Below the pieces are notes generated by a model that was not told the DNA's origin, made no database searches, and saw only the letters and a list, made by a program, of their open reading frames with translations. This document shows, in pieces, positions 24,597-40,296 of a DNA stretch of 64,000 nucleotides. A program made the translations under genes and the position numbers. Position 1 is the first letter of the stretch; every line of letters begins with the position of its first letter. The stretch is from an uncultured delta proteobacterium. GTDB lineage: Bacteria; Desulfobacterota; Binatia; UBA9968. The DNA is taken from positions 1 to 64,000 of the forward strand of contig CAVXEP010000016.1 in the NCBI GenBank assembly GCA_963760795.1, in the 5' to 3' direction.

Positions 24597-25590
24597 CTAG
24601 AAGCGGCCCTCTTTCTCCAGTTTCTTCAGGACGCTGTCGTCGATCAATTCTTCCGCCTTCAACTTGCGAATCTTTTCATTGGTCAAGCCGAGCAGACGGA
24701 TGACGTTGCGAATGCCGTCGACGCTCGGATAGATTTTCTGGTCGTACAGAGTCGGCAAAGTTTTGTAGCCTTCCTCGGCATCTTCCAGTTTCGCCAAGCG
24801 CATCCCCTTGGCGACGGCGCGAATGACCTCGGTTTTGTTGGCCGGGTTGCGGACAAAGTTGACCGCGTCGAGCAGGCCGCGAAAGACATTTTCCGCCACC
24901 GCCGGCTGCGTGCGCATGAAGTTGCGCCGCGACATTAGTCCCGAGCCCTGATAGGGGATCGGCAGCTTTTCCACGTCGGCGAGCACCGTGTAGCCTTTGT
25001 TCTGCAAGTTCTTCCCATGGGCGTAGCCGACCAGCACGGCGTCGACGGTGCCGGCCATGAAACCTTGAACCATGACGGTCTGATCGCCGAGGGAGCGGAA
25101 CTGGATCTTGTCGCGCTCCGGCGACAGGCCCCAGTGGTCCAGCGTCAGCATGGAAAAAATCCAACCGCCGCCGCTAAGACTGTTGACCCCGACGCTCTTG
25201 CCTCTTAATTCCGCCGGGCTTTTGATCTTTGGCTGGGCCATGAACATGCCGGTGAGCCGATTGATAAAACCGGCGACGAAAACCAAGTCGGCGCCCTTCG
25301 GCGATGGCGCCAAGATTGGCGCCGGATACCGAGCCCCAGTGAAACTGCGATTCGCCGGAACTCAGCGCCGCCATGCCGATGGGCCCGCTGCGCGCTTGAA
25401 TGAACTGGACTTCGATGCCGTATTTGCGAAAGTAGCCCTGCTCTTGGGCGACATAGATCGCCGCTTCGCGCTCGCTTACCGAACCGGTGGTGAGGAGGAC
25501 TTTGGTCAGCGGGGTAGCTGCATGCAGGATATTTGCCGGCGCTGCAACAATAAACAAGATAATGAGCAATCCAAGAGAACGAACCATCAT
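24597..25590 (-). CDS. NMT1/SsuA-type solute-binding protein (+1 frameshift near 25295)
   Basis: Signal peptide and YVAQEQGYFRKYGI in one frame; ELRGKSVGV...LIDDSVLKKLEKEG in the next. Confidence 0.85.
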
Positions 25591-25627
25591 CAAAATAAGT
25601 CTCCGTTCATGGCAGTAAATCTCGTTT

Positions 25628-25710
25628 CCGTCATTCCGGCGTAGGCCGGTATCCAGACTTCGAACTAGACACCCACCCCGCCTGGATGCCGGTTTCCACC
25701 GGCATGACGG
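25628..25710. repeat. Inverted CGTC REP pair
   Basis: ccgtcattccggcgtaggccggtatccag ... ctggatgccggtttccaccggcatgacgg. Confidence 0.85.
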
Positions 25711-25743
25711 AGTTGGCGACTCTCATGACTCGTTTAGCCTAGC

Positions 25744-26304
25744 CTACAGCGTCGGCTGCACCGCTGGACGATCTAACAGCCGTTTCACCCACGCTTTTAC
25801 ATTCGGCAGATCATCACCGATGGTCGCTTGATAGCGGTCGAGCCGGGTGAAAAACGGGATGAAGGTGATATCGGCAAGCGAGTAGTCGCCGGCGATATAG
25901 TCGCGCCCGCGCATGTGGCCTTCGAGATACTTCAAGTATTCAACGATCTCGGCCTTGGACTGTTCGACTTTGTAGTCATGGGCGACGAAGCCGCCGGCGC
26001 GCTGCAAGCGGGTGTTGCAGTAGTCGACCCAGATGCGCACGCGGGCGCGCTCGCCGAGGTCGCTGGGCATCAATCGAACCGCCGGATATTTCTCTTCGAG
26101 ATATTCATCGATGATCGCCGACTCGTAGATCACCAAGCCGTCGTCGTCGAGCACCGGCACTTTGCCGTAGGGATTGCGCTCGAGCAAATCCTTGGATTTA
26201 TTTTTGAGATCGCACTCGATGGTTTCGTAGGAGAGATTCTTTTCCGCCAGGACGATCCTCGTCCTGTGGGCATAGGGTCAGGGACGGTAGGTAAATAACT
26301 TCAT
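25744..26304 (-). CDS. Selenocysteine-containing glutathione S-transferase (Sec9, U-P-Y-A)
   Basis: RBS ggagg then MKLFTYRP-UGA-PYAHRTRIVLAEK...NPYGKVP...YESAII...SLADI in one frame. UGA (26280-26278) sits at the CPYA cysteine position. Confidence 0.85.
26248..26266 (-). promoter_or_regulatory. Bacterial SECIS-like hairpin (GST)
   Basis: CAGGACGA-GGA-UCGUCCUG starting 11 nt after the UGA. Confidence 0.75.
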
Positions 26305-39744: not shown

Positions 39745-40296
39745 ATGATTGTTCTCAGCCCGGAAGGGAAAGCGCAGACCTCGGCGGCGAAAATCGCGGG
39801 TATCGCCCAGTTCACCGATCTGCGCGGCAAAGTAGTGGGGCTGCTCGATAACAGCAAACCCAACGCCGACAAGCTGGCGGAGCGTTTCGCGGAATTGTTG
39901 AAAGAAAGATACGGCGTCGCCGGCCTGATCACGCGGCGTAAGCTGACCGCCCAGCAAGGAGCGCCCAAACAGTATCTCGACGAGCTCGCGTCGCAAGCCG
40001 ACTTCGTCATTTGCGGCCTCGGTGATTGAGGCTCCTGCACGTCGTGGAGTGTCCACGACTCACTCGAGATCCAAAAGCGCGGACGGTTCGCGATCACACT
40101 GATCACCCACGCCTTCATCGCATTGGCAAAGTCCGAAAAGGAAGCTTTCGGCGCGCCGGATCATCCGGTGCTGGTCGTGCGGCATCCCATCGGCACGGTC
40201 AAGATCGAAGATGTGAATGAAAAGGCCGACGCGGCGTTCGATCAGTTGGTAAATATTCTGCTTGCGCCCGAGGCGGCGCGAGCGAAGGTCGCCTAG
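39745..40296 (+). CDS. UGSC-family selenoprotein (Sec95, U-G-S-C)
   Basis: RBS ggaggagg. VGLLDNSKPNAD...ICGLGD-UGA-GSCTSWSVHDSLEIQKRG...VRHPIG; the frame stays open 88 codons past UGA 40027-40029 to TAG at 40294-40296. Confidence 0.9.
40041..40059 (+). promoter_or_regulatory. Bacterial SECIS-like hairpin (UGSC)
   Basis: GUCGUGGA-GUG-UCCACGAC starting 11 nt after the UGA. Confidence 0.75.

Follow-up and report, generated by a model that had tools for sequence, protein, structure and literature searches.

The minus strand of the DNA analysed here (the window, 64,000 nucleotides from an uncultured delta proteobacterium of the Binatia) carries a gene of 186 residues for a protein of the glutathione S-transferase (GST) fold, and we propose, with a probability of about 0.96, that a UGA at its codon 9 is read as selenocysteine (Sec), a prediction that rests on sequence comparison and conservation. 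The coding sequence runs from an ATG at 26304 to a TAG at 25746-25744 and holds one in-frame TGA, and its N-terminus, MKLFTYRP-TGA(26280-26278)-PYAHRTRIVLAEK, is in frame with the GST body. An earlier sequence-only reading had proposed this frame (MKLFTYRP-UGA-PYAHRTRIVLAEK) together with a strong ribosome-binding site and the ATG at 26304, and all of these were recovered, with AGGAGGT at 26314-26308 and a product of 186 residues. It had further claimed that the ORF track truncates the GST, which is indeed the case: the sole call of the table-11 ORF list at this locus is a 147-aa fragment with a TTG start (25744-26187). The features of the locus are given below.

25744..26304, minus strand: coding sequence of the predicted Sec-GST, with 186 aa followed by TAG (reading frame; GST_N and GST_C Pfam scores over cut-off; AlphaFold; Foldseek)
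26314-26308, minus strand: Shine-Dalgarno sequence AGGAGGT, the GGAGG of which ends 4 nt 5' of the ATG
26278..26280, minus strand: in-frame TGA at codon 9, predicted to be read as Sec, in the motif U-P-Y-A (conservation and alignment)
26248..26266, minus strand: SECIS-like upper stem-loop of the bacterial type, with 8 bp and a GGA loop that lies 19 nt from the UGA (folding and conservation)
26119..26163, minus strand: motifs K48-V49-P50 and E61-S62, with conservation of 95% or more across the 51 sequences
25870..25881, minus strand: S142-L-A-D145, likewise with conservation of 95% or more across the 51 sequences
26212..26214, minus strand: Cys31, a second conserved cysteine (44 of 51 sequences; Val in seven)
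26017..26019, minus strand: Cys96, within helix 83-108 of the predicted structure (49 of 51 sequences)
25744-26187, minus strand: truncated ORF of 147 aa with a TTG start, as in the table-11 ORF list, without the active-site loop

The full-length protein passes the Pfam cut-offs for both GST_N and GST_C, with 71.8 bits for PF13409 against a cut-off of 25. The AlphaFold model, obtained from a 99-sequence alignment, is a GST fold with a pLDDT of 97.9, in which U9 is located at the start of helix 1. We take K48-V49-P50 and E61-S62 to be glutathione-site motifs, including the cis-Pro, and P50 is invariant in the 99-sequence alignment; S142-L-A-D145 presumably corresponds to the N-capping box in the C-terminal domain of GSTs. 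Among the relatives whose upstream sequence was displayed, the starts are also preceded by purine-rich stretches of the GGAG/GGGG type. A promoter and terminator scan at the locus gave nothing above shuffled sequences. Past the stop, a palindromic intergenic repeat was observed at 25620-25720 (-54.7 kcal/mol, 50 BLAST hits in the genome), a REP/MITE-like element that could serve as a terminator.

The TGA at codon 9 and the length of 186 codons were found in all 51 distinct coding sequences compared, down to 55% identity; this set comprised the window gene and its relatives, and it omitted duplicates, one longer locus (L032) and two loci with truncated 5' ends. TAA or TAG occurred at codon 9 in none of the 51, and the residues flanking the TGA were conserved. 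In addition, 21 of these genes use TGA as their terminal stop, and thus TGA functions as a stop in the Sec-GST lineage. Across 61 genomes (the host's own and 60 relatives), the matches listed at 51% identity or more numbered 81 and fell in 58 genomes, with 75 weaker matches besides. Exactly one TGA was present in 79 of these 81; the other two begin at query residues 24 and 15, missing the site, and one of them ends at its contig edge. When 301 genomes of the class were considered, the clade was present in 44 of 49 further genomes from the host's order, often as two copies per genome with one fixed SECIS sequence, and the 186-aa clade is apparently nearly fixed in one order of soil and sediment Binatia. 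Near-identical copies on two contigs or at two loci of one relative (L020 and L021 in G019) would reflect duplication or strain mixing.

Outside the clade, many homologues carried at this site one of the residues that the sequence-only reading had named, Cys or UGA. Beyond the host's order, weaker matches of 41-49% identity occurred in 24 of 251 genomes, 2 with TGA; the 13 retrieved hits from other Binatia orders that cover the site comprised 10 Cys, 1 Ser and 2 TGA, and the Cys homologues had a TGC or TGT codon and were without the Sec-GST hairpin sequence. Of 150 distant representatives, 90 have Cys at the aligned position, 38 have Ser, 19 have no residue there and 3 have a different one, and in tau GSTs the aligned residue was the active-site Ser; these alignments agree with the claim that the UGA occupies the catalytic Cys position. 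The presence of the TGA was also followed in public runs, the best-matching of which were soil, cave and sediment metagenomes, none containing half of the sampled words. In the 4 of 24 listed runs whose contigs were checked, the TGA was spanned by DNA contigs (runs X1 and X4) and by one RNA-library contig (X17, depth 2.5, 26021-26304); these contigs come from related strains, and no difference at 26278-26280 was among the differences listed for them. The RNA-library contig is not counted as expression, since such contigs do not prove transcription. A sequencing error at the TGA, a point that the sequence-only reading had raised, is excluded by independent assemblies.

The hairpin claimed to begin 11 nt past the UGA was found with 8 bp and a GGA loop as CAGGACGA-GGA-UCGUCCUG at 26266-26248. 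The 51-nt region from the UGA has a folding energy of -15.8 kcal/mol. The folding z-score was -3.3 for the 31-nt core, and -1.7, -0.8 and -1.2 for windows of 51, 81 and 101 nt, none of these longer-window values being significant. According to a 2026 survey of selenoproteins, the bacterial SECIS has a loop of 3-9 nt, a stem of 4-16 bp, an MFE of -7.5 or lower and a G within the first two loop positions, at 16-37 nt from the UGA (PMC13188914); the Sec-GST hairpin falls within the constraints given there, with a loop of 3 nt (GGA), a stem of 8 bp, a distance of 19 nt and -15.8 kcal/mol. Of the 194,514 TGA triplets counted over all six frames, 2,194 satisfied a loose hairpin rule, which was dropped as a stand-alone test for Sec because it is too unspecific; a stricter version, with at least 8 bp and the stem beginning at 11 nt, was satisfied by 30 TGA triplets, mostly outside genes. 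The combination of hairpin and TGA in the Sec-GST gene goes beyond chance because the TGA is kept at codon 9 in every one of the 51 coding sequences.

Codon usage within the hairpin was analysed as well. AGG had been described as an uncommon Arg codon in the window, and among the long ORFs there it accounts for 36 of 816 codons for Arg, with 3.7% of 45,365 genome-wide; in the 51 coding sequences, Arg14 and Arg16 are AGG in 99 of 102 instances, compared with 38 of 684 at other Arg codons. Synonymous codon heterozygosity was 0.06 at the six hairpin codons (13-16, 18 and 19) versus 0.46 at 123 other sites, and the hairpin codons formed the lowest-heterozygosity windows of the gene. Pairing and covariation were assessed in 39 of 52 extracted hairpin regions, where the expected pairs were formed in 97.8% of cells, compared with 25-51% for slid partners. 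Two-sided changes were observed in two of the eight hairpin pairs (four cells) and five pairs were invariant; this covariation is thin, and the sequences are kin. One covarying pair changed from A-U to G-C in the window's own gene, silently at Thr15 and Ile17.

The Sec machinery on which the sequence-only reading depends is present in the host genome, where selA, selB and selD are clustered on one contig (C11) and selC, for tRNA-Sec, lies on another (C13), all over cut-off. In the wider set, selD was found in 57 of the 61 genomes. The host copy of selD (G000, C11 near 2850, L010) carries one extra base relative to 12 relatives, a few codons upstream of selD's own Sec codon, and this base shifts the frame. 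We consider the insertion to be probably an assembly error, because an NMT1-type binding-protein gene in the window (24597-25593, minus strand), downstream of the Sec-GST gene, is likewise split into two frames here and is continuous in L020, probably through another assembly indel. If the selD insertion were real, the strain could not make selenophosphate. For glutathione, gshB (glutathione synthetase), a GCS2-family ligase and glutathione reductase were all over cut-off in the host genome.

The genome gave 15 GST-fold hits, and TGA at the active site is confined to two of them, the window gene and a second Sec-GST (L115, C32:473654-474211), which has 186 aa, is 53% identical and carries an identical SECIS hairpin; a Ser-type GST lies about 16 kb from it. 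Further selenoprotein candidates came from a crude scan, from which 16 were hand-picked among the 170 listed of 285 (L101-L113 and L116 among them). They include GrdA, about five GrdB-like proteins, a PrdB-like protein, TxxU/UxxC peroxiredoxin-like and AhpD/YciW-like proteins, as well as DsbA-like, rhodanese, glutaredoxin-like and UGSC candidates. With so many likely selenoprotein genes, the host, apparently a soil organism, is therefore regarded as a heavy user of Sec.

In the mechanism that we propose, SelB would bind the hairpin and Sec-tRNA would decode UGA9. By analogy with Cys-GSTs, we favour, with some reservation, a role of the enzyme as a glutathione-dependent, deglutathionylating reductase of the Cys-GST type. 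The Sec9 selenolate would attack a glutathionylated small molecule or protein, the reduced product would be released with the enzyme left carrying Se-SG, a second GSH would free the enzyme with formation of GSSG, and glutathione reductase with NADPH would recycle the GSSG. Such an Se-SG cycle is suggested by the CP[F/Y]A-type motif and the conserved glutathione-site residues, as in Cys-GSTs. CP[F/Y]A is the motif of the Lambda-type, Omega-like Cys-GSTs, whose ping-pong cycle starts with an attack on a glutathione conjugate that leaves glutathione on the enzyme until a second GSH removes it (PMC4138524).

The window protein was compared with characterised proteins of several GST groups. The Omega and Lambda Cys-GSTs (human GSTO1) share with it the xP[Y/F]A motif, the cis-Pro and ES motifs and the fold; the window protein differs in having Sec for Cys, in its length of 186 versus about 240 aa and in being without N- and C-terminal extensions. 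Human GSTO1 scored 1e-54 with the Sec-GST profile and was outranked by SspA/RegF, and the nearest solved structures found with Foldseek, with 30-36% identity, belonged to SspA/RegF and to the tau GSTs rather than to Omega. U9 aligns with the Cys of betaproteobacterial SspA/RegF and, in the soybean tau GSTs 4chs and 2vo4, with the Ser of the active site, and none of the NCBIfam GST models reached its cut-off for the Sec-GST. Gene neighbours differ between lineages and none names a substrate: of 53 loci, about 11-17 have thioesterase, cupin and NMT1 binding-protein neighbours, and these come wholly or almost wholly from the host genus; the neighbourhood of the 53 loci showed no selenium or redox operon, and the neighbours of family f3 differ. 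A literature search, outside which subscription journals lay, found no assay of a natural Sec-GST.

The same Sec enzyme might instead act mainly as a glutathione peroxidase, in which H2O2 or an organic hydroperoxide would be reduced by Sec9, which two GSH would then regenerate; we regard this as possible, if on balance doubtful, and it can coexist with the deglutathionylating role. The alignment of U9 with the tau Ser speaks for this role, and conversion of Ser13 to Sec in GmGSTU4-4 and its variant Sh14 abolished CDNB conjugation and conferred reduction of H2O2 and cumene hydroperoxide, with ping-pong kinetics for the Sec variant of Sh14 (PMC10812501); a review reports the same outcome for Sec conversion of other GSTs (PMC9944854). 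It also speaks for a peroxidase that the host's best GPx-family match is a Cys form. The two engineered proteins, SeGmGSTU4-4 and SeSh14, resemble the window protein in that Sec sits at the position corresponding to U9, in a tau GST fold very like its own (PMC10812501), but they are artificial conversions of Ser-GSTs by chemical modification, whereas the window gene would be a natural, genetically encoded form. Against a peroxidase stand also the nearest natural relatives, which are Cys-GSTs with deglutathionylation as their described cycle, and the several Sec peroxiredoxin-like and AhpD-like candidates that the genome already has. If the peroxidase reading is true, a minimal GST scaffold with genetically encoded Sec would be nature's version of the enzyme that protein engineers have built artificially. 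The broader proposal that the clade is such a natural seleno-GST glutathione peroxidase throughout the order, and that Sec-GSTs possibly had more than one origin in Binatia with the same SECIS sequence, we consider rather unlikely.

A non-catalytic protein, namely an SspA-like transcription factor or ligand-binding protein with Sec9 as a redox switch, is much less probable. It is consistent with the top Foldseek and profile hits, which are betaproteobacterial SspA/RegF structures (4qq7, 6v91 and 4hoj; TM 0.88-0.89, 30-34% identity) with Cys at the site and bound glutathione in 4qq7 and 4hoj; moreover, representatives of the SspA type share the unresolved tree fork of the Sec-GST, and the SspA-like query P0200 returned the two Sec-GSTs as the genome's two best E-values. 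However, the PHP motif, which SspA requires to bind RNA polymerase (PMC7515715), was present in none of 52 proteins, and the SspA model NF007016 gave 87.3 bits for the window protein and 105.3 for the paralogue L115 against a cut-off of 314. Membership in SspA was rejected on both grounds. Hardly any weight can be given to the remaining explanations, that the UGA is a Trp codon, a sequencing error or a true stop, in which last case the gene would be a pseudogene or translation would restart at codon 40 to give a short protein. The short form is called in 119 of 120 homologues, one record reads W, and the assembly shows apparent one-base errors elsewhere; yet the codon is TGA in 51 of 51 sequences between conserved residues, and the short form would lack the active site together with the first strand and the first helix of the predicted structure. 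The Trp reading was rejected because TGA is also the stop of 21 of the 51 genes.

With UGA9 read as Sec, the window gene very likely adds a member to a family predicted since 2005, the existence of which will be no surprise to specialists. Four Sec-GST sequences appear in the Sargasso Sea selenoproteome of 2005 (PMC1088965) and 12 GST-like selenoprotein sequences in the GOS study of 2008 (PMC2398784), a GST-like selenoprotein family is listed in a 2022 review (PMC9312934), algal Sec-GSTs are reported (PMC7539508), and the 2026 catalogue has the GST-like family PF13409 as "predicted with high confidence", the functions of such families being largely uncharacterised (PMC13188914). The earlier view that Sec-GSTs are rarely reported is to be qualified, as they have been catalogued since 2005, and the view that they are usually mis-annotated was confirmed: residue 9 is missing from 119 of the 120 closest database proteins, the remaining one reads W, and 25 of the best 120 homologues are 147 aa long. 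A systematic mis-annotation, in which the database proteins are without the catalytic N-terminus, is thereby corrected. In addition, the clade is small, well folded by prediction and deeply sampled, and would be suited to a first assay of a natural Sec-GST; such an assay would tell deglutathionylation from peroxide reduction as the role of Sec at this site.

The Sargasso proteins resemble the window protein in the GST domain (COG0625/PF13409), the single Sec and its N-terminal active-site position followed by P[W/Y]; close to the N-terminus, two of the four have VT-U-PW, one has RR-U-PY and one RR-U-PW, the motif being compared by eye, and they differ in belonging to other subgroups than the 186-aa clade, as judged by eye only. 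In quick trees, the 186-aa clade is recovered as one group amid GSTs of the Cys and Ser types, with SH-aLRT values of 98 and 91. Sec-GSTs of 203-204 aa from other Binatia orders (L032, L151 and L152) are 44-47% identical and have the same hairpin core; they were placed apart from the 186-aa clade, and a single origin of all Binatia Sec-GSTs had a p-AU of 0.048, which is not a decisive value, as it comes from quick trees and a group chosen post hoc. A search of the available literature returned no paper joining selenoprotein terms with Binatia or Binatota. The main text of BSepDB mentions neither GST nor Binatia, its supplement includes Binatia genomes (PMC13326102), and its online database may already hold members of the Sec-GST clade; the deep-Sep text makes no mention of GST.

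Two further loci were observed in the course of this analysis. At 39745-40296 on the plus strand of the window lies a gene for a UGSC-family protein (PF24696, 149.8 bits) of 183 aa, with an in-frame TGA at 40027 and a hairpin 11 nt past it; judged from its sequence, this would be the second hidden selenoprotein of the window. Elsewhere in the genome (C32:271407-271841, L100), a DUF411 protein (PF04214) has TGA in place of the first Cys of a CxCC motif. DUF411 is absent from the family table of the 2026 review in the part available (PMC13188914), and a literature search found no paper joining DUF411 with selenoprotein. One TGA was present in 25 of the 26 DUF411 matches, found in 24 of the 61 genomes, and a hairpin follows in the 12 loci that were folded. 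Near-identical DUF411 copies on two contigs or at two loci of one relative (L140 and L142 in G037) would point to duplication or strain mixing.
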